Source: Telmatocola sphagniphila (lineage in GTDB: Bacteria; Planctomycetota; Planctomycetia; Gemmatales; Gemmataceae). From it: a stretch of 32,000 nucleotides of DNA. Both the position numbers and the translations under genes were made by a program. Positions 4,806 to 18,225 of this stretch are shown here, piece after piece. Each line of letters opens with the position of its first letter. Within the stretch, counting starts at the first letter, position 1. The DNA lies in the NCBI RefSeq assembly GCF_018398935.1, contig NZ_CP074694.1, positions 150,001 through 182,000 on the forward strand, read 5' to 3'. A model generated the notes under the pieces. The model was not told the DNA's origin, searched no databases, and was given only the letters and a program-made list of their open reading frames with translations.

Positions 4806-7163
4806 TCATTCGAAACTCGAATTGATGCGAACTTTGCCCGTCAGGCCTGCCGCTCGGCCTTCCGAATGCTGCACGAAGTCCAGAGCCAATTTGACGATCT
4901 TTTTATCCTTGATTTCCAGTTCCCAGACTACGAAATCCCCCTTGATGGAGTTGCTGCCCCGGCCTTTGCCAAAGAAATCGATACCCGGGGAAGCGCCGCT
5001 GAAGGCGAACCGCTTGGCGTCGTTGTACTCACCAATCTGGAGGAATTCCTGCGAGGGGCCACCCACCTGAAAATTCCAACCATCGACCTGAATGCTCACG
5101 CCGCGAGGCGTCACTTTAACGTCGAGCTTGTCGCCTTCGTAATTGTAGTCCTTCCCCTGGCCGATGAAATCTCCTTTCTCGCTGGAGATTTTCATGTAAG
5201 AGGTCGGTTCCTTGCTCGCTGCCGGCTTTTTGAAGAGATTCTTGGCCGCCTTGGGGTCCTTGACCGCAACGCCCTCCTTCGGAGTGCTGCCCGGTGTGTC
5301 TTTCTTGGCGAGGTCTGGCGACAACGTCACTTTAGGGAGCACGATGTTGCCGGGATTACCCTCGGCGCGGGTCAGATCGATGTCGAAGGCCAGAGCGAGT
5401 TGGACATCGCTGCCGGGAGCCGAGAATTCCGATCCTATGGTCATCTTTGCGAAAGATATGTAACCGCGATTCAAGTGCAGGCCGAACCGGCCGGTGACTT
5501 GGCCATCCAGTCCCTCCTTTTTCGTGCGGCCCTTCACTTGGCCCTCAAATGTCACCACCGCCTGAGGGCTGCCTTCGACGGGTCGGACGCCTTCAAGAGT
5601 GCAGTTCAAGACGAGGTCGACGACTTCGGATTTTCCACCAGTCTTGAGTAGCAGCGGCACCTTGACCGGCCAGCTTTCTCGGGCGCTCAACTTACGGTTG
5701 GGAAGGGTGAAAGTCGCCGCTTCGTAGGCGTTGTAAATCTGAGTGCGGTACTCGGTGACGGCTTCGCGGAGGTCCGCCGAGAGGCGAGGATTCAGATTTA
5801 CCTCGGTCCGCTCGCGAAGTTTGTTGGTATCGTCGATGACGAACCGGGGCGGTGTGCGCTGCAGCAGATTCGCAACTTCAGGATTCGGACGAGCTTTCCG
5901 TCCCCCCTCTTCGATATTCAGACGGGGTGCACCGAAACCCAGAGTCACCAGCGCCCCCTTGGGATTGGGGGAGAACGATTCGAGGATCGGCAACTCCGAG
6001 GATTGAGACAACACGTACTGGCTCTTGCCCCGGGTGAGGGTGAGCGACTGAGTGGCCTTCAACTGAACGGTACGCTCTTTCTGCTCGGAGAGCTTGCAAA
6101 CCAACTCCGCCGGGATCCTTTCGACAGCCTGGGCCGGATCGAACATATGGGGCTCGCCCCGTATCGGATCCCCCGCCGTGAGCACCGCGATCGGCTGCAC
6201 CCACGCGACTTCGCCCGGTGCGAGTTTCGGCAAGGCGATATCCCCCGCCGCGGAATTTTTCGCATAGGGCAATGTTTGGGTTTGTGCATCTTTCGGCGCG
6301 GATCCCAGCGCCTCGGCGGTCTTGCGCGACCAGACTTCGACGCGGACTTCCCGGATTCGTTTGAGCGGATCGAGACACTCGCACTTGACCGGCACACGCA
6401 CCGCTTCGCCTTCGCGGAACGGAACCCCGGCAGTCCAATCGAGGATCCGACCGCTGAATAGAGCCTGAACCAGGCGGACTGGCACGGCGAAATTAATCTG
6501 AGTATTCCGAATCACCGCAACCGAGACGCCGACAACCTGGCCTCGATTGTTGACGACGGGACCTCCAGAATTTCCCGGGTGCATGCCGCCGTTGACCTGA
6601 ACCTGCTCGAGTTGGCCCTTGGCGTTGTTCCGGAGGCTCGAGATCGACGATTCGCTGACTGTTATGCTCTTGCCAAGTTCAGTGCCGAAGGGAAAACCGA
6701 AGATGTAAACTTTCTGCGTCTCCACCAGTTCGGTATTGGTTTCGAGTTGCAGCGGAGTCGGAAGCGTTCCGTTTTCGGGGGCTTCGACTTTCACTAGGGC
6801 CAAGTCGCTCGACCGGTCAACTCCTAGGATCAAGCCTCGCAGCGTGCGTTCGTTGCCTGTGCCGCTGCCGACGATGACTTCGACATTGGCGGGCGGCTTG
6901 CTGCGAGCCTGAAGCATGCCAAGAACGTGAGCGTTAGTGACTACGATTCCCGGTTCCACTGCGAAAAAGCCGCTCCCTTCCGCCGATCGTCCCCCCTCGC
7001 TGCTGACCTTCAGCAGGACGGTGGATTGCTTGACCCGCACGACCGACTCTGGAGCAATGGCGGCGGGGGTATCGGCCGGTTTCTGACCCCGTACCGGGGC
7101 GGCCCAGATCGATGCTAGGGTGGCAGCAACTGAGAGTGCAAAAAGACTGTGGCAGGGGAACAT
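4806..7163 (-). CDS. Secreted trypsin-like serine protease (S1C/DegP-like catalytic domain) with a long uncharacterised C-terminal region
   Basis: It has an N-terminal signal-like sequence (MFPCHSLFALSVAATLASIWAAPVRG). The catalytic triad contexts are TNAHV (His), DLALVKV (Asp) and GNSGGPVV (Ser). About 540 further residues carry no PDZ motif that I could recognise. Confidence 0.8.
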   Translation of the reverse strand: MFPCHSLFALSVAATLASIWAAPVRGQKPADTPAAIAPESVVRVKQSTVLLKVSSEGGRSAEGSGFFAVEPGIVVTNAHVLGMLQARSKPPANVEVIVGSGTGNERTLRGLILGVDRSSDLALVKVEAPENGTLPTPLQLETNTELVETQKVYIFGFPFGTELGKSITVSESSISSLRNNAKGQLEQVQVNGGMHPGNSGGPVVNNRGQVVGVSVAVIRNTQINFAVPVRLVQALFSGRILDWTAGVPFREGEAVRVPVKCECLDPLKRIREVRVEVWSRKTAEALGSAPKDAQTQTLPYAKNSAAGDIALPKLAPGEVAWVQPIAVLTAGDPIRGEPHMFDPAQAVERIPAELVCKLSEQKERTVQLKATQSLTLTRGKSQYVLSQSSELPILESFSPNPKGALVTLGFGAPRLNIEEGGRKARPNPEVANLLQRTPPRFVIDDTNKLRERTEVNLNPRLSADLREAVTEYRTQIYNAYEAATFTLPNRKLSARESWPVKVPLLLKTGGKSEVVDLVLNCTLEGVRPVEGSPQAVVTFEGQVKGRTKKEGLDGQVTGRFGLHLNRGYISFAKMTIGSEFSAPGSDVQLALAFDIDLTRAEGNPGNIVLPKVTLSPDLAKKDTPGSTPKEGVAVKDPKAAKNLFKKPAASKEPTSYMKISSEKGDFIGQGKDYNYEGDKLDVKVTPRGVSIQVDGWNFQVGGPSQEFLQIGEYNDAKRFAFSGASPGIDFFGKGRGSNSIKGDFVVWELEIKDKKIVKLALDFVQHSEGRAAGLTGKVRINSSFE

Positions 7164-7330: not shown

Positions 7331-8131
7331 CTACCCTTTCAAATCTCTGACGTATTCCCCAGGCGCTTTCCCCACCACCGATTTGAAATCCCGGATGAAA
7401 TGAGCCTGATCGAAATAACCTAGCCTGGCAGCGAGCTGGCCCAGACGGATTTCGCCCGGGGCGGCCAACTGCTCGGCCGCCTCATGCAGCCGATAACGTT
7501 TGATTACCCACTTAGGACTCACGCCGACATATTGGCTGAACATTCTTTGCAGCATGCGCGGATTCAGCCTGGCTAGCCGGGCGACTTGTTCGACGTGCGT
7601 TATCGAACTATCCCGGGCGATCTGCTCGGCCAGATCGCGCACCAACGCAATTTCGGGATCGGGTTCCGGTAGGATCGATCCGAGATAATCTTCCGCGATC
7701 TCGACGCAAATCTGTTCGTCTTCTTCCGCCAGAATTTTTGAGACGAATCTCACCGCTTTCGTTCCGAACACTTCTCGCAGCGAAATGAGCCGATCGGTGA
7801 TTCGAGTCACCGGTTGGCCCAACAGCGGATAAAAAGTTCCCGGCCGAAATTTGATGCCGAAAACTCGGCCCTTTCCCGCAATTCGCCTTCGAAATTTACC
7901 GTTGGGTATGCCATAAATCTTGGAGCGGTTCTTTTCAATCACCACGTGAATAGTGGGATGCGGAAGCGTCTCAGCCACTTGCGGCTGCTGACCGCGAAGA
8001 TCCCACCAAACTATCCAGTAGTGCTCGATGTAAAAATCGATCCCCGCCGAGGGAAGTAGCCTCACATGATGGGAGTGAGTTCGTCCGGCATTGAGGACGC
8101 CGCGCGGCTGATCCGTTCTCTTTGTGGCCAT
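7331..8131 (-). CDS. AraC-family transcriptional regulator
   Basis: The C-terminus has a double HTH signature (RMLQRMFSQYVGVSPKWVIKRYRL ... LAARLGYFDQAHFIRDFKSVVGKAPGEY). The gene is divergent from 8237-8680. Confidence 0.85.
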   Translation of the reverse strand: MATKRTDQPRGVLNAGRTHSHHVRLLPSAGIDFYIEHYWIVWWDLRGQQPQVAETLPHPTIHVVIEKNRSKIYGIPNGKFRRRIAGKGRVFGIKFRPGTFYPLLGQPVTRITDRLISLREVFGTKAVRFVSKILAEEDEQICVEIAEDYLGSILPEPDPEIALVRDLAEQIARDSSITHVEQVARLARLNPRMLQRMFSQYVGVSPKWVIKRYRLHEAAEQLAAPGEIRLGQLAARLGYFDQAHFIRDFKSVVGKAPGEYVRDLKG

Positions 8132-8236: not shown

Positions 8237-8680
8237 ATGAAAGAACTGACAATCCGAGAATCGATTCACATTCAAGCCCCGGCTGCCAAAGTCTGGGATG
8301 TGCTTACTCAGCCGGAGTACACCCGCCAGTACATGTTCGGCTGCGCGGCGGTCACCGACTGGAAGGTGGGTAGTCCGCTCGATTGGAAAGGGACTTATGA
8401 AGGCAAAGAGATGACCTTCGTTTCCGGTAAGATTCTGTCGATGGAACCGGGTTACGCTTTGGTCTACACGACGTTCGATCCGAATGTGAATTACAAAGAT
8501 CTGCCGGAGAATTATATGCGAGTCACCTATCGTTTAACGCCTAAGGATCACGGCGTTATGTTGGAGGTTACACAAGGGGATTTCTCGAAGGTCGAGAACG
8601 CCGAGAAGCGTTACACGGAAACAGCCTCGGGCTGGCCGATGGTGCTGGAGAATGTTAAAGCGATCGCGGAAAAGGGGTGA
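8237..8680 (+). CDS. SRPBCC-superfamily (AHSA1/START-like) protein
   Basis: 147 aa. The N-terminal IHIQAPAAKVWDVLTQPEYTRQYMFG pattern and the overall size are typical of Aha1-like SRPBCC proteins. Confidence 0.7.
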   Translation: MKELTIRESIHIQAPAAKVWDVLTQPEYTRQYMFGCAAVTDWKVGSPLDWKGTYEGKEMTFVSGKILSMEPGYALVYTTFDPNVNYKDLPENYMRVTYRLTPKDHGVMLEVTQGDFSKVENAEKRYTETASGWPMVLENVKAIAEKG

Positions 8681-8925
8681 GGGAGACTGCCCCGCATCGG
8701 GGTGGCACTGACCAGTATCGGTAAGAAAAGGGCTATGCCAGCGAGCGAAGAACGGGAAGTGGTCCTCAGCTAAGTTTTACACACAGCGAAGTTCGAAAGC
8801 GCGAGATCAAGATTTGCTAGTTATTCATGGTCTTCCTGGAGATTGGGGAGGATACGAGCTGCCCGGGCGTGAATTTGTTTTGAGTTGAAAAGAGGTCCTT
8901 TGAAATTGAAAATCGAGGATTTCTC

Positions 8926-9238
8926 AATGGCACTGTCAGATAGACAGTGCGACCCAAGCCGTTACTGCACTATGACTTGCATTGATTGAGAAGATTTGCC
9001 AGTGCCATCTCGCCGATTCCAATTTCAGGGTGGAACTAGCTATATGCCAGTGCGTGGGAGAAAAAAGTGCCAGAGAATTGTCACCATCTCAGGCACAAAA
9101 TCGAGCCAGAAGAGCGATTTATCTCAAAATGGCACTGTCAGATAGTCAGTGCCACCCAAGTCTAAAAATAATAATGACTTGCGCCTATTAACAAGGGTTG
9201 CCAATGGCACTCGTCGCCACATTCAAAGCAGAATATGG
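8926..9238 (+). repeat. Composite hairpin-rich repeat block A: X (8926-9033), Y (9034-9125), X' (9126-9238)
   Basis: It is homologous to 12965-13047 plus 14971-15176. The Y cores at 9045-9106 and 14986-15047 match at 59 of 62 positions by eye. X begins with a palindrome (8930-8950, gcactgtc-agata-gacagtgc). The motif GCCAGTGCC or its complement GGCACTGGC recurs many times. Confidence 0.8.
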
Positions 9239-9257
9239 AAAAAACGGCCAATTTATA

Positions 9258-9287
9258 TTGACTTGATGGCCATTTATTCTGTATTAT
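9258..9287 (+). promoter_or_regulatory. Sigma70-like promoter of the five-gene cassette, overlapped by an operator-like direct repeat
   Basis: The -35 TTGACT (9258-9263) and -10 TATTAT (9282-9287) are separated by an 18-nt spacer. The direct repeats GGCCAATTTAT (9247-9257) and GGCCATTTAT (9268-9277) straddle the -35 box. A GGAGG Shine-Dalgarno (9295-9299) lies 7 nt before the ATG at 9307. Confidence 0.55.
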
Positions 9288-9306: not shown

Positions 9307-9522
9307 ATGGGCGATGCAAAGAAGACGATGACACTGAACTTAACAGAGGCCGAAATGCGGGTTTTAGATGACCTGGCCAAGAAAAAGGAGCTGACGAAGA
9401 CGGCCGTCATCCGGCAAGCCATCCGCCTCTACCAAATGATCGAGGTCAGGATGGCGGCTGGCGAGAAGGTCTTCTTCGAGGACGAGAAGGCCCAGAAGAA
9501 AGCGGAGCTTATGGTCCTATGA
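9307..9522 (+). CDS. Ribbon-helix-helix (CopG/Arc-like) DNA-binding protein, putative antitoxin or autoregulator
   Basis: 71 aa. A beta strand (KTMTLNLTEAEM) followed by two helices (RVLDDLAKKKELTKTAVIRQAIRLY) gives the classic RHH pattern. It has a good Shine-Dalgarno, and its stop overlaps the next start (ATGA at 9519-9522). Confidence 0.75.
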   Translation: MGDAKKTMTLNLTEAEMRVLDDLAKKKELTKTAVIRQAIRLYQMIEVRMAAGEKVFFEDEKAQKKAELMVL

Positions 9523-10148
9523 GCGCCATCCCCATCAAGATCGTCCGGCGTCAAGATAAGGCGCTGGTTGACGCCATTCTCCATACCGAGCTAACGCCGA
9601 AGGTGCTCGGCGATACGGAGAAGGAATGGGGACCAATTCGGCTCGCTGCTGCGAAGAAGCTTCACGCCGCGGGAAAGTTCCAGGGGATACCTCAACACTT
9701 CCATTGGGATTGGGACAGGAAGAGCGGGAAACTGAAGTTGCTTTCCTATCAGAGCCTCGGCATCGAGTGCGCCGGGAAATTCCAAGGCCTGCTCATGGTC
9801 GATCTTGCGGGCAGGGTGGCCAGAATCGATCCCGATGTGGGCAAGCCTCTCGTCTACATCGAGTACCTAGAGGCCGCGCCTTGGAATCTGTCCATGATGG
9901 TTGACACGCCGATGTACTGCGGTATTGGCCCGGTGCTCATGCAAGCGGCGGTGGAACTGAGTTGCGATCAGGGATTTCATGGGCGGCTTGGATTGCATGC
10001 CCTTCCCCAGTCAGAGGGCTTCTATCGAGACGATTACGAAATGCAATGCTGTGGACCTGATGCGTCCTTCGAGGACCTGCCGTACTACGAGATGACCCGC
10101 GTGATTGCGGCACGCTTTACGACAAACTCTAGCGGGGGTGCGGTATGA
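9519..10148 (+). CDS. GNAT-like acetyltransferase-fold protein, putative toxin or effector
   Basis: 209 aa. LVYIEYLEAAPWN, then YCGIGPVLMQAAVE (a GxG of motif-A type), then LPQSEGFYRDDYEM (motif B-like) resembles a GNAT core. It is longer than typical TacT/AtaT toxins. It is translationally coupled on both sides by ATGA overlaps. Confidence 0.5.
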   Translation: MSAIPIKIVRRQDKALVDAILHTELTPKVLGDTEKEWGPIRLAAAKKLHAAGKFQGIPQHFHWDWDRKSGKLKLLSYQSLGIECAGKFQGLLMVDLAGRVARIDPDVGKPLVYIEYLEAAPWNLSMMVDTPMYCGIGPVLMQAAVELSCDQGFHGRLGLHALPQSEGFYRDDYEMQCCGPDASFEDLPYYEMTRVIAARFTTNSSGGAV

Positions 10149-11113
10149 AAATGAACACTAACCCAGAATGGCTGCTCCGGATGGCGGAGAAGGAGGCGAA
10201 TCGGATCATCTCCGTAGGTGGCTTCGTTAACCGCGTGGAGATGAACGTAGGCGTGCAATCTATGCCGGCGATGACGCGGTCCGAATGGACAAAGATTTTT
10301 CCCGTCAGTGTCATGCGAAAACTGCGGTTCTCGCTGCCCGAAGGCGTTAGTGACGTGGAGGCACTTCTCCAATTCTTCGGTGTCGCGTCGCCTGACGCAT
10401 GGCGGTCAAAGTGGGGCGACTATGCCGTCGCCTTCCGTCAAACGCAAAAGTTCGACTTCCATCGCGAAGCTCTTACCGCATGGGTACGAGAAGCAGAGAT
10501 CATCGCTGGCCAGATTCCTCTCGCGGATTTCGATGAGGAAAAGCTTCGAGGATCGCTGGATGAGTTCCGGCGGCTAACTCGTGAGGACACTCAGGTCGGT
10601 CTCGACAGGGCACAGTTGCTTTGTGCTAAAGCCGGGGTGGCGCTTGTCCTCGTTCCAGAATTGCCCGGCACGAGAATCAGTGGGTGTGCCCGGTGGCTGA
10701 ATGATCGTCACGCCATGATCGGCCTGACCGTCCGGTACAAATGGGCCGATCAGCTGTGGTTCACCTTCTACCACGAAGTGGCCCACGTCCTGTTGCATCG
10801 TCGCCGTTTGTTCGTGATAGATAATGCGGCCGATCATATGGGCGACGCCGTGGTCGATCCGGTGATGGCGAAGTACGAGGAGGAGGCGGACCGATTCGCG
10901 GGAGACTTGCTTATCCCGCCCGTTGCGCTTGCCGAGTTCCTCAGTCGCCACGGTGAGACGCTGACGAGCGAAGAGATTCACGCCTTCGCGGACTCTATCG
11001 AGATCGGTCCAGGCATGGTGGTCGGCCGCCTTCAGCACGATGAGATTCTGAAACATTGGCAGGGGAATATGCTCAGGCAAAAGCTTGGGTGGGATTTTGT
11101 CACCGAGGACTAA
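10145..11113 (+). CDS. ImmA/IrrE-family (COG2856, DUF955) zinc metallopeptidase with an N-terminal HigA-like region
   Basis: 322 aa. The HExxH motif HEVAH (nt 10772-10786) sits in the context WFTFYHEVAHVLLH, with a downstream EEEADRFAGDLLIP block typical of this family. The N-terminal LLQFFGVASPDAW resembles the end of an Xre/HigA HTH domain. Confidence 0.75.
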   Translation: MKMNTNPEWLLRMAEKEANRIISVGGFVNRVEMNVGVQSMPAMTRSEWTKIFPVSVMRKLRFSLPEGVSDVEALLQFFGVASPDAWRSKWGDYAVAFRQTQKFDFHREALTAWVREAEIIAGQIPLADFDEEKLRGSLDEFRRLTREDTQVGLDRAQLLCAKAGVALVLVPELPGTRISGCARWLNDRHAMIGLTVRYKWADQLWFTFYHEVAHVLLHRRRLFVIDNAADHMGDAVVDPVMAKYEEEADRFAGDLLIPPVALAEFLSRHGETLTSEEIHAFADSIEIGPGMVVGRLQHDEILKHWQGNMLRQKLGWDFVTED

Positions 11114-11117
11114 CGAC

Positions 11118-11759
11118 ATGATCGGCAAGATTTTCGTCACTAGCAGCGGCTACGATCCGGGCAAAGGCAAGGATGTCAAGGACCCCTACCTGGGGCCGAA
11201 AGCCTCGTTGGGTGCGTGCCGACCTGATTTTCGAGAACAGCTTCAGAAGGATGACCACATCTTCGTCGTGTCCGGAAAGGTCCGGAACGTCGATCAGTTC
11301 GTGATCGGCGGCTTCGCGATCGAGGAGAAAATTACCGCGATGGAGGCGTATGAGCGCTTCCCAGAGCATCGGCTTGTACTGCTGCCGAACGGCCAGGTCA
11401 GCGGGAACGTGATCGTAACCGCCGACGGCAAACAGCACCCGCTCGATCACCACGACCAGTTCGAGCGGCGAATTCAAAACTATCTCGTCGGCACGAACAC
11501 AATTGCCCTCCTGACGCCAGAGGAGATGGAGGAGGGGCGACTCTGGACGCTGGATATTCTTCGTGATGTCTTCGGGATCAAGGGCAACTCGATCCGCGAG
11601 CTTATGGGCCGAAACCGCAACCTGTCTGAACGTCAGGTTCTGAAACTGCGAGATCATTTGGAACGGGTGAAGATCGCTGCAGGTAAGCCGATCGAGCCGG
11701 AGGAGATTGGCCGTGTTCTGAGAATTTCGACTCGCGATGCGATTCGCGTTAAAGCCTAA
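11118..11759 (+). CDS. Hypothetical protein of 213 aa, function unknown
   Basis: The start is taken at MIGKIFV, 4 nt after the previous stop. The N-terminal pattern GYDPGKGK..DPYLGPKASLGACRPDFRE..DDHIFVVSGK loosely recalls Nmad2 / PUA-like beta-barrel modules. I could not verify this. Confidence 0.6.
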   Translation: MIGKIFVTSSGYDPGKGKDVKDPYLGPKASLGACRPDFREQLQKDDHIFVVSGKVRNVDQFVIGGFAIEEKITAMEAYERFPEHRLVLLPNGQVSGNVIVTADGKQHPLDHHDQFERRIQNYLVGTNTIALLTPEEMEEGRLWTLDILRDVFGIKGNSIRELMGRNRNLSERQVLKLRDHLERVKIAAGKPIEPEEIGRVLRISTRDAIRVKA

Positions 11760-11770
11760 GGAGATTATTT

Positions 11771-12961
11771 ATGGTAGTACAAAGAAGTGGCAAAAGTAAG
11801 TCTCAATTCGTTAGGCAGAGAACGTTGTTCGCTCCTGAACTGCCCTCACATGCAGAAGTGTGCGGCCCGGATGTGCCATGTGACATTGCTCCCATCGAGA
11901 AACGGCGTGATGGCGGTACACGCTACTGGTGCCGAGCGCATCGGGCTGACGCCACCGAGAAGGGCGGCAAGCCGGCCAAAAAGTGCTGTGCAGCAGACAA
12001 AATTCCACTCCGGGAAGATGAGATAAAGATTCTCGAACTGGATAAATACTGCGGGGGCGTGGCTCTCTGGGGCGCTGTGCCGGCCGTCTATGACACGACG
12101 CGGCGACCGATGGATAGCGGGATTCACATCCACGCTCGACCCGAGTCGGGTTCAAAGAAGGAGTTGGATTTCACTTTCCGAGCTGTTCGACTCATGGGAA
12201 AGAAACTGCCCGTGGATGGAATCATCGTCAATGAAACCGACGCGATTTACTACATGGTCAGTTCTGTGTTCGGCTACTCAATGAGCTTCGTTTCTTGCAC
12301 TCATTGTAGCTGGCCTCACCTCGACAAGGATTGGTTCAGTGTGAATCCCCACCGCCGACATCTCTGCGCTGGCTGTGGGAAGCATTTTCATGACCGCGTG
12401 AGAGGGATCGGCAATCCGATCATCGGAGTGCGGGATGCCTGCGGAGCAGCCGATCATAAGGTTTCGCCAGCTCCTAAGAATTTCGAGATCAAGCAGTCAG
12501 ATTATCCTGGCGGCCTTCAAATCTGGGGCTCTAACCCAGCATTTCTATGGACGCAACCAAAGGACGAAGAAGAGGGTATTCACGTCCATGCATTTTTGAC
12601 TGATGACCAGGAAGATCCGACTGTGGATGACACATTCTCAGAGGTAATAATCGATGGCGTAGAGCTTGACCCTCACATGGTCCGCGTGCTGATGGCCCAA
12701 AATGTCCTTCCATCGCTGAAGGGGCGAGTTAGGTCGATGGACTGCCCGCATTGTGGCCAACCTGGATTTGATGCAGGCGAAGCAGCCTTCGTACCAGGCC
12801 CGACTCATATTTGCCCAGAGTGCGGCCGTCAATTCCCCACAGTTGGCAGGACCAGGAACGTCGTGGTAAATCCCCTTCCAAAGATATTGGATGACCTTGC
12901 TCGGTCTGCCCCGCGGCCGCCTCAACAGCATCAGCTCGATCTGCTTCCCGAAACTCTTTAG
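11771..12961 (+). CDS. Hypothetical protein of 396 aa with a tandemly duplicated module, each copy ending in a CxxC...CxxC zinc ribbon
   Basis: An AAGGAG Shine-Dalgarno (11758-11763) lies 7 nt before the ATG. The internal repeat has a period of 152 aa. GG..WG at aa 95 and 247, GIH[IV]HA at 117 and 269, the paired CxxC motifs at 176/199 and 325/348, and NP[IL] at 215 and 367 are all in register. Confidence 0.7.
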   Translation: MVVQRSGKSKSQFVRQRTLFAPELPSHAEVCGPDVPCDIAPIEKRRDGGTRYWCRAHRADATEKGGKPAKKCCAADKIPLREDEIKILELDKYCGGVALWGAVPAVYDTTRRPMDSGIHIHARPESGSKKELDFTFRAVRLMGKKLPVDGIIVNETDAIYYMVSSVFGYSMSFVSCTHCSWPHLDKDWFSVNPHRRHLCAGCGKHFHDRVRGIGNPIIGVRDACGAADHKVSPAPKNFEIKQSDYPGGLQIWGSNPAFLWTQPKDEEEGIHVHAFLTDDQEDPTVDDTFSEVIIDGVELDPHMVRVLMAQNVLPSLKGRVRSMDCPHCGQPGFDAGEAAFVPGPTHICPECGRQFPTVGRTRNVVVNPLPKILDDLARSAPRPPQQHQLDLLPETL

Positions 12962-12964
12962 ATC

Positions 12965-13047
12965 GAGAACGGTGGGTGGCACTGGTTACTTGCTGTTTTT
13001 TTTATTGATCTTTGCGAATTGTAGGACTCAATCCTCGTCCAATTTCC
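12965..13047 (+). repeat. Divergent X-type repeat, the left part of composite repeat block B
   Basis: It shares ggcactgg, attgat and the terminal tccaatttc with the X unit of block A (8926-9033). It continues into Y at 14971 once the intron is removed. Confidence 0.6.
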
Positions 13048-13087
13048 GTATAGGGCTAGGAGGAGTATTGGGCTCCCCCTTCCCTCC

Positions 13088-13120
13088 AAACCGGACGGGC
13101 GGATCTCCCGCATCCGGCTT
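13088..13120 (-). ncRNA. Group II intron catalytic domain V
   Basis: The minus strand reads AAGCCGGAUGCGGGAGAUCCGCCCGUCCGGUUU. It has the AGC triad, a two-part helix with a 3'-side bulge, and a GAGA-containing apical loop. It lies 15 nt after the RT stop codon. Confidence 0.85.
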
Positions 13121-13134
13121 TCCGGTCAGTAGTC

Positions 13135-14502
13135 TTACCCCTTGAGGGATTGAGATTCCAGACGATGTGCCTGTTCCAGGGAGAACAGCCCCGCCTCGGC
13201 AAAGTAAGCTTTAGGCCACTTGAAGTTGTCCATCTTTCGGCTTCGACAATCGTGACCCAGACGACGACGCAGTATGCACCGCAGCCGCATTCGAGTCCAT
13301 TTATCCACGTCCCGAAAGATCCTCTTTTTGCTGTGCTTGAAGTATCCGTACCAGCCTCGTAGCGTTACGCTCACGTCGCGGACGATCTGCGACAGGCTAT
13401 CGCCTCTTTTCCGCTTCGTTTTCGCGCGAATCGCATCCCGAAGTTTCTCCAGACTTCGCTTCCGAGGATATATCAGACGTTGTCCTTTATAAACTCCAAA
13501 GCAATAGCCTAGAAATTCGAAACTCTCGATCTGCGTGTCCACCACTCTCGTCTTTTCCGGATGCAGTTGTAGCTTGGCCGATTCGCACCAGCGGCTCAAC
13601 GTCGCCAGGGCTTCTTCCGCTTCCGCTCGACTGCGGCAGACGATCATCATGTCATCCGCGTATCGCACCATCCGAAAACCTAGGGATTCCATCAATTGGT
13701 CCAAAGGATCCAGATACACGTTACTCAACAACGGACTCAAAACTGCCCCTTGCGGGGCTCCCGATTCCGGTTCCCAACTCCCCATCGACGAGAATATCTC
13801 GGCTTTAAGGAATTGCTCCACCAGAGCCAACAGCGTGCCGTCCGCGACCTTTCGCTTCAATAAATCCATTAATTGATCGTGATTGATCGCGTCGAAGTAG
13901 CCTTTAATGTCGACATCCACCAGATGCGTGTAACCTTCCCGCAAGAGTTCATTCACCTCTCGCAAGGCATCCTTGCAGCCTCGACCCGGACGAAAGCCGT
14001 AACTGCCCGAGGCGAAATCCTTCTCGAAGATCGGCTCCAACACCTGGCGAACCGCGCCTTGAACCACTCGATCTCGAACCGTTGGGATACCCAGAGGACG
14101 GCCTTCTTCACTCCCCGGCTTCGGGATCACCGTTCGCCGGATTGCCGAAGGACGGTAGGTGCCGTCCCGTAAAGTTCGTCCCAGGGCTTCCAGGTTCTCG
14201 TCCAAATGATTGGCAAACGCTTCGACACTCACATGATCCACGCCCGCTGAGCCCCCATTCGCCACGACTTTCGCCGATGACGACTTCAGGTTACTCTTCT
14301 TGCACACCTTGTCCATCAAGCTAAACCAGACGCCTCCTTTAACGCCCTCTTCGAGCGCGCTCAACATCCGATCGGTCCATACCGCAGGTTCCGTCCACGA
14401 CCATTGCTCTCGGACCCTACTAACGGTACCCGAGAGTGGGTCGGTTTCTTCTCCGCCTTGTTTAGCCACTGGCACTGACGGCGGTTTCTCTTTCCTGCCC
14501 AT
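13135..14502 (-). CDS. Group II intron reverse transcriptase/maturase
   Basis: It has an RT domain with YADD (RYADDMMIV) and a maturase X-domain (LRGWYGYF), and no C-terminal HNH/En domain. The start is taken at MGRKEK (14502). The longer ORF to 14730 would leave only 240 nt for intron domains I-III. Confidence 0.9.
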   Translation of the reverse strand: MGRKEKPPSVPVAKQGGEETDPLSGTVSRVREQWSWTEPAVWTDRMLSALEEGVKGGVWFSLMDKVCKKSNLKSSSAKVVANGGSAGVDHVSVEAFANHLDENLEALGRTLRDGTYRPSAIRRTVIPKPGSEEGRPLGIPTVRDRVVQGAVRQVLEPIFEKDFASGSYGFRPGRGCKDALREVNELLREGYTHLVDVDIKGYFDAINHDQLMDLLKRKVADGTLLALVEQFLKAEIFSSMGSWEPESGAPQGAVLSPLLSNVYLDPLDQLMESLGFRMVRYADDMMIVCRSRAEAEEALATLSRWCESAKLQLHPEKTRVVDTQIESFEFLGYCFGVYKGQRLIYPRKRSLEKLRDAIRAKTKRKRGDSLSQIVRDVSVTLRGWYGYFKHSKKRIFRDVDKWTRMRLRCILRRRLGHDCRSRKMDNFKWPKAYFAEAGLFSLEQAHRLESQSLKG

Positions 14503-14970
14503 AAACTCCTCGAAATCCACCTTCCTACGTCCCTTCGCTCCGTCGGCATTACCCGATTTCCACGCTACTATGGACGCTCTGACTTCCGACGCACAAGGCA
14601 ATCGCCTTCCCCGGTGCCTCGGATATCCCCGCTTACATTCGATACCTTTCGCACTCCTTCCGCCTCCAACCACATCGGATACCTCCCTCGACTCGCTTGG
14701 GGCTTTATCTCGGGATAATGCCGTCACCATAAGTTCTCCAACTGCTGGCGGACCTCTCGGTCAGTCCGGCTTTGCTAGCTTCGCCCTTAGCCACGCAGGC
14801 TCGCCGGTATCCGCTGCCGAAACGAGTTCACTTTATTGCGGACGAGATGCTCCCCTCGGGTTGCTCCCCACCCCGCCTCACGGCGACGCAGTTACCTTCG
14901 GGTACAAAAGGCCAAGCCTCCTTTCGACAGGGAATCTCACCCTGCTAGTATCGAATAGTCACGGGCGCAC

Positions 14971-15176
14971 GTGGCACTGGCTAACTGCCAGTGCGTGGGA
15001 GAAAAAAGTGCCAGAGAATTATCACCCTCTCAGGCACAAATTCGAGCAGAACGAACGCTTTATTGCAGAAACGCACTCGCAGATGGCCAGTGCCACTCAA
15101 ACCGTTACTGGATAACGACATGCGCTGATTAAGAATGCTTGCCAGTGCCACCCGCCGTCAATTCTCTAGGGTGAGG
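14971..15176 (+). repeat. Right part of composite repeat block B: Y (14971-15062) and X (15063-15176)
   Basis: Y matches 9045-9106 at 59 of 62 positions. It begins with a perfect 8-bp hairpin (14974-14994, gcactggc-taact-gccagtgc). X aligns along its length with 8926-9033 and ends in agggtgagg, which serves as the Shine-Dalgarno for the ORF at 15184. Confidence 0.8.
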
Positions 15177-15183
15177 TGCTACA

Positions 15184-15423
15184 ATGCGATTATGCCCTTG
15201 TTGCGAAGAATATGGTGATCTGTGGGATGTCATATTTACGAATCTTGGCGATCGACGAGCCGTTATGTGCTTCGAGTGCGACTCGGTATGGGATGCTGAG
15301 TATGAAGAACCCACGACTGAATTTACTGATTACGAAACGCTGATGAAAAAAAATGGAGTTGCACCAGACTGGAAGTGTATAGTCAAAGTACGTTGTGTCG
15401 GCACCGGGAAACCTAATACCTAA
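15184..15423 (+). CDS. Small Cys-rich (CPCC...CFEC) zinc-ribbon-like protein, function unknown
   Basis: 79-aa ORF with a GAGG Shine-Dalgarno about 7 nt upstream. Two CxxC-type pairs are present. It lies in an AT-richer segment. Confidence 0.5.
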   Translation: MRLCPCCEEYGDLWDVIFTNLGDRRAVMCFECDSVWDAEYEEPTTEFTDYETLMKKNGVAPDWKCIVKVRCVGTGKPNT

Positions 15424-15556
15424 AGGAACTTGAACAATTGAAATCGATCTTTCTGGCGAAGATGTAAAGATAATCTGTTATGCAATCACATGGAGCCTTT
15501 TCCCACCCTTCTTGCGAAGCTCATCACTAAAGTATTCAGAAGTAGAGCGGCAGAGA

Positions 15557-15811
15557 ATGGAAGCAATTTTCGATGCGCTAAGTAGCTATCTACATGACGC
15601 CGCGGACATCTTTGAAGTCTCGATCAGTAATATCAGATTGATCGCGGGAGATAATGTATTGGCAGACAGTAAAAATGACATTTTGCACATTGTTTTGTGT
15701 TTGCAATCGTTCCAGATCGAAATCGGACATTCGCCAAATGAGGTTTTGGCAATTACTGGTTTGCCTATCGTACGTCTTCAGTCTCTAGGTGAGCGACTCT
15801 CGAAGCTATAA
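15557..15811 (+). CDS. Hypothetical small protein (weak call)
   Basis: The ORF is open from 15512 (TTG), and the first ATG is at 15557. I recognised no motif. It lies in an AT-richer accessory segment. Confidence 0.3.
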   Translation: MEAIFDALSSYLHDAADIFEVSISNIRLIAGDNVLADSKNDILHIVLCLQSFQIEIGHSPNEVLAITGLPIVRLQSLGERLSKL

Positions 15812-16291: not shown

Positions 16292-16404
16292 TTCCTGGTA
16301 AAACTTTACGGTTCTTCCGTTTTTAGGCGCAACTCTCGGCGAATCGGTCATTTTGGGATAGATTGCAATTTAGAGTACCCTTTACCTGGATCACGGAAGA
16401 GCCG

Positions 16405-17211
16405 ATGACGACGACTACCATTGCCATAGACATGGACGTCCCTGCCGGAGTGAGCGTTGGCGAATACGAACGCGTCGACGGTGGCCACGCCTTTCACGTG
16501 AGTTGGGAGTTGCCCGACAATCTTTGTTGCGAGACTTGCCAGCGAGAGTCTCGGCTTCAATTGGTGGAGAAGAACAAGTTTCTGAGCATCCGCGATCTGG
16601 ATTTGTGGGGTAAGCCGAGCTTTTTCGTGTACCAGGAGGTGTATCACCGCTGCCCGTCGTGCGGTCACCGTCAATCGCTGTTGCCGCCGTTCAAGCGTCG
16701 GGATGTGAAATATACGTTTCGCTTCGAGGAGCAGGTGCTGGTCAGTCTGATCGGGAGCACAGCCGAAGACGTGGCGGTGCGTTTGGGGATTGCCGCGGAG
16801 ACGGTGGAGCGAATCGTCAAGAACCGGATAGAGGACGCCAAGGCGAAGCAGATCGATCCCCAGCGGAAGATCGAGCGTTTGGGTCTGGATGAGATCAGCC
16901 TGCGTAAGGGGCATAAGGGATATGCGACAATATTGACGGACCTGACGAATGGGGAGCGTCCGGAGATTCTGGCTCTGTCCAAGGGTCGCGACGAAGCAGC
17001 GGGGCGAGCGTGTTTGGAGCGTTTGTCGGCCCAGCAACGGTCGGCGGTGCGTTGGCATCATACGGACATGAGCGCGGCGTATTTGAAGGCTTGCGGCGTG
17101 CATTTACCCAACAGCCAGTCGGTGATAGATCGCTTTCACGTCGCCAAGAAATTGGGTGAGGTGGCGGACGATCTGCGAAAAAAAACTATCGAGCCTACAA
17201 GCGAAGTTTGA
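16405..17211 (+). CDS. ISL3-family transposase, N-terminal part (frame 0, ends after the A8 run)
   Basis: It has the zinc-finger-like pairs CCETCQRE and CPSCGH, and DRFHVAKKLGEVADDLRKK is typical of ISL3 transposases. The ORF is open from 16363, and the first ATG is at 16405. Confidence 0.8.
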   Translation: MTTTTIAIDMDVPAGVSVGEYERVDGGHAFHVSWELPDNLCCETCQRESRLQLVEKNKFLSIRDLDLWGKPSFFVYQEVYHRCPSCGHRQSLLPPFKRRDVKYTFRFEEQVLVSLIGSTAEDVAVRLGIAAETVERIVKNRIEDAKAKQIDPQRKIERLGLDEISLRKGHKGYATILTDLTNGERPEILALSKGRDEAAGRACLERLSAQQRSAVRWHHTDMSAAYLKACGVHLPNSQSVIDRFHVAKKLGEVADDLRKKTIEPTSEV

Positions 17212-17720
17212 GCGGGGAAGCCCGCAAGAAGCTGCGTTCTCAGATGCACGACTTCCGGCGTCGTCCCGAGGATTTGAATCCGGAGCAGGTCCAGGCCCTC
17301 GAGGATTTGTTCGAGAAGGTGCCTTCGTTGGGAACGATCTACCATCTGCGTTGGGAGGCGACCAAGATCTTCGATAGTGCCCCGAACCGAGCCGAAGCCT
17401 CGCGACTGTTGGAAGATTGGATCGTCCAGGCCCGCGAGACCGAGATGGATTGGGAGCCGTTCATCACGATGCTCAAGAATAACTGGGAGGGGATCTTAGC
17501 CTACTTCGAGGAACGCAAAAGCAGCGGCCCGGTGGAAGGTCTCAATACCAAGATTCGGGTAGTGCTACGTCGGAGTTATGGAATTCAGAGTCTAACTACG
17601 CTCTGGACGAGAATACTCCTGGACGTGAATTGGGCTGCGAAAAAATTAGGGCCGACCGTTGCGGAGATTCGCGGCTTCGTCAACCAGATCCAGAAGTATT
17701 TCTCTGAATGCTACACCTAG
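17208..17720 (+). CDS. ISL3-family transposase, C-terminal part (-1 frame, no ATG of its own)
   Basis: Read from the A-run, the -1 frame gives KKNYRAYKRSLSGEARKKLRSQ..., continuous with ISL3 transposase architecture. It contains the NTKIRVVLRRSYG motif expected near the C-terminus. Confidence 0.8.
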   Translation: MSGEARKKLRSQMHDFRRRPEDLNPEQVQALEDLFEKVPSLGTIYHLRWEATKIFDSAPNRAEASRLLEDWIVQARETEMDWEPFITMLKNNWEGILAYFEERKSSGPVEGLNTKIRVVLRRSYGIQSLTTLWTRILLDVNWAAKKLGPTVAEIRGFVNQIQKYFSECYT

Positions 17721-18152: not shown

Positions 18153-18225
18153 TGACCCTACCGGGATTCGAACCCGGGTCGCAGCCTTGAAAGGGCTGTG
18201 TCCTAGACCACTAGACGATAGGGCC
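18153..18225 (-). tRNA. tRNA-Glu (anticodon UUC)
   Basis: I folded a 73-nt cloverleaf by hand. The acceptor stem is GGCCCUA/UAGGGUC with one G-U pair. The D arm is GUCU-AGUGGUCUA-GGAC. The anticodon stem is CAGCC/GGCUG with loop CUUUCAA. The T arm is CCGGG-UUCGAAU-CCCGG. The CCA end is not encoded. Confidence 0.9.

Follow-up and report, generated by a model that had tools for sequence, protein, structure and literature searches.

A peptidase-centred five-gene cassette of Telmatocola sphagniphila and its relation to the modular plan of PD-lambda-2

We analysed a chromosomal stretch of 32,000 nucleotides (the window) from the planctomycete Telmatocola sphagniphila, which carries a cassette of five genes on the + strand at positions 9307–12961. 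The genes encode a 71-residue ribbon-helix-helix (RHH) protein, a 209-residue protein with a probable GNAT fold, an M78 (ImmA/IrrE) zinc metallopeptidase of 322 residues, a 213-residue protein predicted to be Nmad2/PUA-like, and a 396-residue Cys/His-rich protein with duplicated zinc ribbons. We refer to the first two as the head and to the last two as the tail. The five genes form one operon that has spread horizontally, and the operon is probably a conflict system derived from a toxin–antitoxin (TA) system, with the peptidase as its hub, most likely anti-phage and abortive-infection-like, and laid out on the modular plan of PD-lambda-2. The five-gene arrangement is far beyond chance, because the same gene order recurs across phyla and at least 25 apparently shared source contigs link the match lists of the 209-, 213- and 396-residue families.

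PD-lambda-2 of Escherichia coli ECOR42 has been validated by experiment as a system of abortive infection (Vassallo et al. 2022, PMC9519451). Its components A, B and C correspond to PF09907 (HigB), PF06114 (M78) and PF14350 (Beta_protein, HHpred 100%), respectively (Vassallo supplement, PMC9519451). On its own, B is toxic, and its toxicity is neutralised by A; C is not needed for neutralisation but is required for defence (PMC9519451). A HigB-type head with a peptidase that carries a helix-turn-helix (HTH) domain is joined to a Beta_protein tail in PD-lambda-2 itself, and to the 213- and 396-residue tail in the majority of the loci that carry the peptidase and both tail genes. The RHH and 209-residue head with its M78 peptidase is joined to a Beta_protein tail at one locus (L088), and to the 213- and 396-residue tail in the window and five other genomes. 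All four head/tail combinations exist, and the 213- and 396-residue pair therefore occupies the position of PD-lambda-2C. A first-pass annotation of the window, made from the sequence alone, knew of no described system with this composition. The cassette nevertheless has a precedent, as a variant of the modular architecture of PD-lambda-2, with a head, an M78 peptidase and a tail.

Organization and products of the cassette

All five open reading frames (ORFs) of the first-pass annotation are present. The RHH gene (9307–9522) was assigned from the ORF call and Pfam RHH_1, the 209-residue gene (9519–10148) from the ORF call, with its fold proposed from sequence, the peptidase gene (10145–11113) from the ORF call and Pfam, and the 213- and 396-residue genes (11118–11759 and 11771–12961) from the ORF calls and AlphaFold2 models. 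The 209- and 213-residue proteins correspond to KIH39_00750 and KIH39_00760, respectively, at 100% identity, and the peptidase is WP_213497371. The junctions are as they had been described. ATGA start/stop overlaps are present at 9519–9522 and 10145–10148, the TAA of the peptidase gene (11111–11113) is separated by the four nucleotides CGAC from the ATG at 11118, and the Shine-Dalgarno sequence AAGGAG (11758–11763) overlaps the TAA of the 213-residue gene (11757–11759), 7 nt before the ATG at 11771.

The first-pass annotation also gave the cassette its own promoter, and a sigma-70-like element is found upstream of the RHH gene. A consensus scan and conservation place a promoter with putative RHH operator boxes at 9247–9287 on the + strand. 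Specifically, a −35 element TTGACT (9258–9263) and a −10 element TATTAT (9282–9287), separated by an 18-nt spacer, match 10 of 12 consensus positions; the boxes GGCCAA (9247–9252) and GGCCAT (9268–9273) lie around the −35 element; and a GGGGAGG Shine-Dalgarno sequence lies between the promoter and the RHH start ATG at 9307. This order of box, −35, box, −10 and Shine-Dalgarno sequence is kept upstream of the orthologous RHH genes in five other genomes (L006, L008, L009, L010 and L013), and the layout conserved across the five-gene loci is TGGCCA-N8-TTGACT-N4-GGCCAT...TATATT. The GGCCA boxes may be the operator of the RHH protein. At the other end, directly after the 396-residue gene, the consensus scan detected a terminator-like hairpin with a T-run (about 12965–13010, + strand), which overlaps a partial copy of a flanking repeat.

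The 71-residue protein matches Pfam RHH_1 over residues 10–42 (E = 3.2e-5), in agreement with the RHH identity proposed for it. It is of the CopG type and its PHROG matches are repressors, and a Pfam search gave no match to DUF1778 at E ≤ 1. The C-terminal tail is conserved (...GEKxxFEDEKAQKKAELMVL), and RHH orthologues with 56–63% identity precede every 209-family gene examined. We regard the protein as a putative repressor or antitoxin-like partner.

The 209-residue protein is probably a GNAT protein, judging from its relatives. The protein of the window gives no match in Pfam, PADLOC, NCBIfam or PHROG, but members of its family, scanned singly, match Acetyltransf_10 (11 of 32; best E = 4.3e-4) and Acetyltransf_1 (7 of 32). 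The C-terminal half has a GNAT-like pattern of β4, P-loop, α3 and β5 (VYIxYLEsAPWN...GIGxxL...GRLGLHAL...sExFY in an alignment of 32 relatives), and a GxG-containing segment includes the invariant G137. A search of the family alignment against Protein Data Bank (PDB) profiles returned nothing relevant, and an hhalign comparison with a single GNAT sequence was uninformative. The GNAT-like assignment of the first-pass annotation is therefore still weak, with weak matches in relatives and the pattern in its favour, and no match for the window protein itself or to a PDB profile. The family is small (85 homologues), and wherever its context was inspected, its gene is accompanied by an RHH-like gene and one for an M78-type peptidase.

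The 322-residue protein matches Pfam Peptidase_M78 (7.5e-7) and contains HEVAH, confirming its earlier description as an M78/ImmA-IrrE peptidase. In PADLOC, its best match is PD-Lambda-2_B (1.3e-28; profile positions 184–377 of 402), followed by capP (7e-11) and RmrA (3.1e-7). No HTH match was obtained in Pfam or PADLOC, and residues 46–322 are 55% identical to residues 104–378 of an HTH-fused homologue. The N-terminal motif MKMN..WLL..SVGG is head-specific, being common to the peptidases linked to RHH and 209-family genes and shared with loci L088 and L087. The HTH domain is absent from the peptidase both in this head variant and in a variant whose head contains Sigma70_r2.

The predicted fold of the 213-residue protein is a PUA-like β-barrel. 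The AlphaFold2 model, with a predicted local distance difference test score (pLDDT) of 86.4 and a predicted template-modelling score (pTM) of 0.81, consists of an N-terminal β-barrel and a C-terminal helical region. The Foldseek matches in the PDB are headed by EVE (McrB-N 6p0g, probability 0.90) and include 2eve, ASCH and THYN1, with YTH further down, all of them PUA-like domains that read modified bases; 9 of the 10 best are EVE, ASCH or related PUA-like structures (6p0g, 2p5d, 2eve, 5guq and 5j3e), with modest E-values starting from 0.02. The protein of the window has no match to Nmad2 (PF18753) at E ≤ 1 in Pfam, and 48 of 49 close relatives match it weakly (best E = 3.9e-4), so that the PUA/Nmad2-like N-terminus guessed earlier holds at the level of the family. 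Such a domain suggests recognition of modified nucleic acid. The family comprises 883 homologues and has invariant polar residues (QHxLDHH, C34 and D13/D22/D37).

The 396-residue protein has an apparently new architecture of duplicated β-domains and zinc ribbons. An invariant N-terminal C/C/H/C cluster is followed by two tandem modules, each composed of a β-rich domain (GGxxxWG...GIHVHA) and a CxxC...CxxC zinc ribbon, in line with the double zinc ribbon that had been claimed. The duplication is evident from an hhalign comparison of residues 80–225 with residues 228–372 (99.4% probability, E = 8.7e-22), and each repeat has invariant His/Asp clusters (GIHVHA and HLDKD). In the AlphaFold2 model (pLDDT 84.8, pTM 0.84), both termini are predicted to be disordered (residues 1–36 and 385–396), and they hold a near-invariant L19-F20 and a C-terminal LLPETL. 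The LF motif and LLPETL, like the AELMVL of the conserved, disordered RHH tail, may be places at which the peptidase docks or cuts. The family has at least 1100 homologues, falling into 503 clusters at 50% identity. These homologues are annotated as "hypothetical protein" in their sources, and both tail families carry the same annotation at NCBI.

Neither tail protein of the window gives anything significant in Pfam, PADLOC, NCBIfam or PHROG, and the 396-residue protein has no Pfam family. Searches of PDB profiles with the alignments of the 209-, 213- and 396-residue families returned chance or zinc-finger-level matches, and the model of the 396-residue protein has no Foldseek match at E < 0.08 in PDB or BFVD. 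Fusions were sought in ten divergent or longer members of the 396-residue family, taken from a search of 1.8 billion representative proteins, and none was informative. A relation of the first β-domain to Helicobacter pylori Csd6 (4xzz, E = 0.038) was borderline and was dropped, as Foldseek did not support it. A weak Foldseek match to RNA polymerase β′ and a CxxC..HLDKD..HxxHxC motif also led us to consider a two-barrel polymerase-like or HNH-like enzyme, which was rejected for want of a supporting score.

A conserved triad with exchangeable heads

To follow the cassette across genomes, we used 80 loci carrying the 396-residue family, one genome per species, and searched all of their ORFs with hidden Markov models. 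The loci span Planctomycetota, Acidobacteriota, Alpha-, Beta-, Gamma- and Deltaproteobacteria, Cyanobacteria, Bacteroidota, Nitrospirota, Gemmatimonadota, Armatimonadota, Eremiobacterota and the candidate phyla radiation. The triad of M78, 213- and 396-residue genes is complete in 64 of the 80, from more than 10 phyla, and takes three gene orders: colinear M78 > 213 > 396 at 48 loci, including 5 with RHH and 209-family genes; convergent 396 > < PIN-like < M78 < 213 at 14 loci; and colinear 396 > 213 > M78 > PIN-like at 2 loci. Four further loci have the 213- and 396-residue genes only, although in 3 of these the contig ends on the side where M78 would lie, and 12 have the 396-residue gene only, with full flanks in just 2 (one solo gene and one fragmented gene). 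The conserved unit is the triad and not the quintet, and the upstream head is swappable. That the triad has come through three rearrangements in more than 10 phyla argues strongly that it is a functional unit.

Two loci show the tail genes in other settings. The gene at L054 (6463–8098) is the sole intact member of the 396-residue family with full flanks that lacks 213-residue and M78 neighbours; it is directly preceded by a NUDIX hydrolase gene and has a DUF932 gene downstream. On an Azospirillum chromid, the order is 396 > 213 > ImmA/IrrE > small protein, and the RefSeq annotation is "hypothetical".

A test of co-occurrence across genomes had been proposed, and the same five genes were found in five other genomes of three phyla, with their order kept. 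The identical order is seen in an Isosphaeraceae metagenome-assembled genome, Gemmataceae, Zavarzinella sp., Chthonomonadales, the cyanobacterium Stenomitos and a JGI metagenome contig. The 4-nt overlap between the 209-family stop and the M78 start is kept at 5 of 6 five-gene loci. As a unit, the cassette recurs intact, but its RHH and 209-residue head is a minority head, present in 5 of the 80 genomes.

The majority head is a HigB-like protein of ~114 residues (Pfam HigB-like_toxin, best 2.9e-8), encoded before an HTH-M78 fusion of 370–400 residues that begins with a canonical HigA-type HTH and matches PD-Lambda-2_B at ~1e-38 over nearly the whole profile. A third head, found in Zavarzinella formosa and some other planctomycetes, is a protein of 205–212 residues with Sigma70_r2 (E = 2e-7 to 4e-10), encoded upstream of an HTH-less M78 gene (L002/L004 5699–6316, L007 1832–2470 and L015 4605–5243); it suggests that the output of this variant could be transcriptional, through a protease-controlled sigma factor. 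The fourth head, a PIN-like protein of ~161 residues, has an acidic pattern (D...GETE...DD) and weak DUF3368 matches. It occurs in the convergent and Bacteroidota arrangements, following an RmrA-like HTH-M78 peptidase (PADLOC 2e-18), at the convergent loci among L039–L076 (for example L059 8063–8581, − strand) and at L074 (4411–4908) and L075 (7716–8213).

Among more distant members of the 209-residue family, inspected in their own contexts, the head of the window also occurs apart from its tail. At L088 (5795–8718), an RHH-like gene (69 residues), a 209-family gene (205 residues) and an HTH-less M78 gene (312 residues) precede a Beta_protein gene (PF14350, 402 residues), in an operon flanked by insertion sequence elements; this is a PD-lambda-2-type operon in which the head seen in the window replaces HigB and the HTH. 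Identity to the window proteins is 63% for RHH, 49% for the 209-residue family and 33% for M78, which has the same N-terminal motif. At L087 (3108–8084), RHH-like and 209-family genes are followed by a gene for an HTH_19 protein with the same N-terminal motif and by an M78 gene split into two ORFs (140 residues with HEITH and 173 residues with E..EAN). This locus lies directly beside a divergent ubiquitin-like conjugation cluster (Multi_ubiq, Prok-E2_E, JAB-ThiF and BubE) and type IV secretion system (T4SS) genes.

The likeness of the cassette to PD-lambda-2 thus lies in its plan: a single operon with the M78 protein in the middle, a TA-type partner upstream and a further component downstream, and a peptidase that has the PF06114 domain and matches the model of component B. 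The components themselves differ. The HigA/Xre HTH at the N-terminus of B is missing from the window peptidase, which aligns with its HTH-fused homologue only from residue 104 of the latter; A is HigB (PF09907), whereas the upstream genes of the cassette encode RHH_1 and the 209-residue protein, with no RelE/HigB match; and C is a single Beta_protein, whereas the cassette has the mutually unrelated 213- and 396-residue proteins, with no match to PF14350 in Pfam or PADLOC.

Genomic surroundings, working model and alternatives

The cassette lies in a tract with repeats and mobile DNA. Flanking repeat copies at 8919–9007 and 9030–9209, upstream of the cassette, match 14971–15150 at ~80%, and repeat analysis found a short partial copy at 12969–13000, after the 396-residue gene. 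The repeats are hairpin-rich, about 90–180 nt long, and have the core GGCACTG-N9-CAGTGCC, with 4 core matches against 0.08 expected. The first-pass annotation was right that repeats exist, but because the upstream copies match a copy beyond the group II intron that follows the cassette, they enclose the cassette plus the intron and not the cassette alone. A short-read assembly of the same organism contains a 3,933-bp contig with just these five genes, broken at the repeats, and the repeats are therefore probably multicopy in this genome, resembling miniature inverted-repeat transposable elements or repetitive extragenic palindromes. An integron-type cassette marked by the repeats was considered and dropped, as the repeats are hairpin-rich and multicopy and also flank the intron.

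The intron, which had been noticed immediately downstream, lies on the − strand at 13040–14970 (Rfam Intron_gpII, domains V–VI at 13050–13122) and contains an ORF for a 531-residue reverse transcriptase/maturase (13135–14730, − strand). Its 5′ end abuts the GGCACTG...CAGTGCC hairpin of the flanking repeat (14971–14996), a stem-loop target of the kind that we take to be typical of class C introns. Between the repeat and the remnant of an ISL3-family element, a low-GC stretch (0.45) contains two small + strand ORFs, at 15184–15423 (79 residues, CxxC...CxxC) and 15512–15811 (99 residues), with no Pfam match. The ISL3-family transposase (16363–17720, + strand) is split into two ORFs of 282 and 170 residues, corresponding to the N- and C-terminal halves of DDE_Tnp_ISL3, and is probably frameshifted or inactivated; it sits between the cassette and a tRNA-Glu gene (18153–18225, − strand), 5.2 kb beyond the end of the cassette. 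On the upstream side, a 785-residue protein (4806–7163, − strand) has an N-terminal trypsin-like domain (Trypsin_2, 1e-24) and a long unassigned C-terminal region, and is separated from the accessory tract by genes for an AraC-family regulator (7331–8131) and an AHSA1/SRPBCC protein (8237–8680).

From gene content, coupling, domain and fold assignments, co-occurrence and module swapping, we infer the following biochemical steps and a role in defence. The RHH protein would bind the GGCCA boxes and repress the operon, and together with the GNAT-like protein it may form a mutually neutralising complex with the peptidase. The nucleic-acid-binding tail, composed of a PUA-like pocket and a pseudo-dimeric zinc-ribbon protein, would recognise a sign of infection, for which a nucleic acid that is modified or unusual is a plausible candidate, and switch the M78 peptidase on. 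Cleavage of the RHH tail, or of a different partner, would then free a toxic activity, that of the GNAT-like enzyme or that of the peptidase, and lead to growth arrest. The first-pass annotation had proposed a protease-gated toxin or abortive-infection module, which fits the comparative data, but to cast the GNAT as toxin and the RHH protein as cleaved regulator is unsafe, because in PD-lambda-2 the toxic component is B and the HigB-like protein neutralises. By analogy with PD-lambda-2, the toxic component may be the peptidase; the recurrent HigB, PIN and GNAT heads point to the head. It is quite possible, and we propose it tentatively, that the Nmad2/PUA-like and duplicated zinc-ribbon proteins are an unrecognised nucleic-acid-sensing (or effector) module that takes the place of PD-lambda-2C on M78 hubs and defines a widespread new anti-phage system with four heads, in which the RHH and GNAT-like pair would be a new protease-controlled acetyltransferase toxin.

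Several observations weigh against an anti-phage conflict system. The 396-residue family is absent from phage genomes and IMG/VR contigs and is represented by one plasmid/chromid record only; the neighbourhoods of the loci inspected are variable but are not clearly defence islands; the peptidase is the sole cassette protein with a model match in the PADLOC scan; and the sigma-factor head is ill-suited to a simple toxin model.

It appears unlikely, though it deserves attention, that the roles are reversed, so that the tail would be the effector (for example, one that targets or modifies nucleic acid), M78 with the RHH or HTH protein would be a CapP/CapH- or ImmA/ImmR-like switch inducing on DNA damage or infection, and the HigB, GNAT and PIN heads would be accessory addiction or back-up functions. 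The match of the peptidase to capP (7e-11), the conserved operator-like promoter before the RHH gene and the constancy of the tail as cargo beneath varying heads are all in keeping with such a switch, as is the second arrangement, which puts the 213-residue gene in the upstream 'toxin' position beside an RmrA-like HTH-M78. Furthermore, the invariant polar residues of the 213-residue protein and the His/Asp clusters of the 396-residue protein fit an enzyme, but PDB profile and Foldseek searches detected no nuclease or other catalytic fold in either. A Beta_protein, unrelated to the tail proteins and not the toxic component of PD-lambda-2, can moreover fill the tail position, and of the four head types three belong to classical families of toxins, typical swappable effectors.

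M78 peptidases are best known from ImmA/ImmR of ICEBs1 and IrrE/DdrO of Deinococcus, and a similar switch for DNA damage, modified-base repair, or the maintenance or induction of an integrated element, with the heads as addiction modules, would make the cassette a stress or mobile-element regulator rather than an immune system. We consider this improbable. The tract of the window is rich in mobile DNA (the group II intron, the split ISL3 transposase, the repeats and the tRNA gene), some homologous loci adjoin recombinases, DUF932 genes or T4SS genes, and a PUA-like/Nmad2 domain points to modified bases as what is recognised; however, no integrase or excisionase is consistently found beside the triad, each genome inspected has different neighbours, phage collections lack the family and plasmid collections very nearly do, and the nearest architecture that has been studied by experiment is that of a defence system. 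That the cassette is an accident, in which an independent RHH–GNAT TA pair came by chance to stand before a three-gene module with which it has no functional link, is very improbable indeed. Such pairs are autonomous TA systems elsewhere (TacAT, AtaRT and KacAT), and RHH and 209-family genes are missing from 75 of the 80 genomes with the 396-residue family. In the loci that do have them, however, the overlap of the 209-family and M78 genes (5 of 6 loci), the loss of the HTH from the peptidase, the head-specific N-terminal motif shared with L088 and L087, the promoter-like element conserved upstream of the RHH gene, and the company of an M78 peptidase in every context inspected all argue against independence.

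Comparison with known systems

PD-lambda-2 and RosmerTA place ImmA/IrrE-type peptidases at the centre of defence systems, for which phage sensing and the cleavage targets are the question. The locus described here exposes a natural combinatorial series, in which a single peptidase hub is combined with at least two heads and with two tails, and in which swaps of the tail (Beta_protein for the 213- and 396-residue pair) or of the head (HigB/HTH for RHH/GNAT) should change trigger specificity or output. It also draws attention to two large groups of proteins for which Pfam has no dedicated family, in systems that are chromosomal in environmental phyla, among them Planctomycetota, Acidobacteriota and Cyanobacteria, which lie beyond the reach of E. 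coli-based defence screens. If the anti-phage reading is correct, the system would be a new one, occurring in at least 10 phyla with about 900–1100 homologues of each tail protein. A literature search found no description of the triad of M78, 213- and 396-residue genes, and the NMAD-containing systems of DefensePredictor were set aside as a match, as their context is different, beside nucleotide-metabolism enzymes.

The head is reminiscent of the GNAT/RHH type II TA systems (TacAT, AtaRT and KacAT), in that a small RHH gene lies directly upstream of an acetyltransferase-like gene and is ATGA-coupled to it. In contrast to those systems, its RHH protein is of the CopG-type RHH_1 and has no DUF1778 match at E ≤ 1, its 209-residue protein belongs to a separate family with weak GNAT similarity, for which no toxicity or aminoacyl-tRNA acetylation is known, and the pair is not an autonomous bicistron but has an M78-type peptidase gene directly downstream in all contexts inspected.

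DUF3368/COG2405 is a PIN family of the VapC group, predicted to act in three-component systems of PIN, HTH and DUF955 (M78) (Matelska et al. 2017, PMC5499597). The convergent and Bacteroidota triads likewise have a COG2405/DUF3368-like PIN gene directly after HTH-M78, whereas Nmad2-like and zinc-ribbon proteins are not part of that description and the variant in the window has no PIN gene.

RosmerTA is an established case of an ImmA-protease antitoxin hub whose toxins can be exchanged (Millman 2022; Ernits 2023, PMC10440598), and it shares several features with the triad: an M78/ImmA protein partners many unrelated toxin-like proteins in variable gene order and with a function in defence, and the beta/gammaproteobacterial and Bacteroidota triads have an RmrA-like peptidase with the 213-residue gene in the position of RmrT. 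RosmerTA is, however, a two-gene system, whereas the cassette has five genes and its other variants four, and RmrA consists of HTH and M78, whereas the RmrA match of the window peptidase is weak (3.1e-7), is confined to the peptidase part and includes no HTH.

Finally, the cassette resembles ImmA/ImmR (ICEBs1), IrrE/DdrO (Deinococcus) and CapP/CapH of cyclic-oligonucleotide-based anti-phage signalling systems in having an M78 HExxH protein encoded next to a small DNA-binding protein and upstream of cargo genes. It departs from them in that the DNA-binding partner is an RHH protein and not an XRE-type HTH, and in that a GNAT-like gene lies between the two. The cassette thus belongs to the TA-derived systems built around an ImmA/IrrE hub, yet component by component it differs from each of them.

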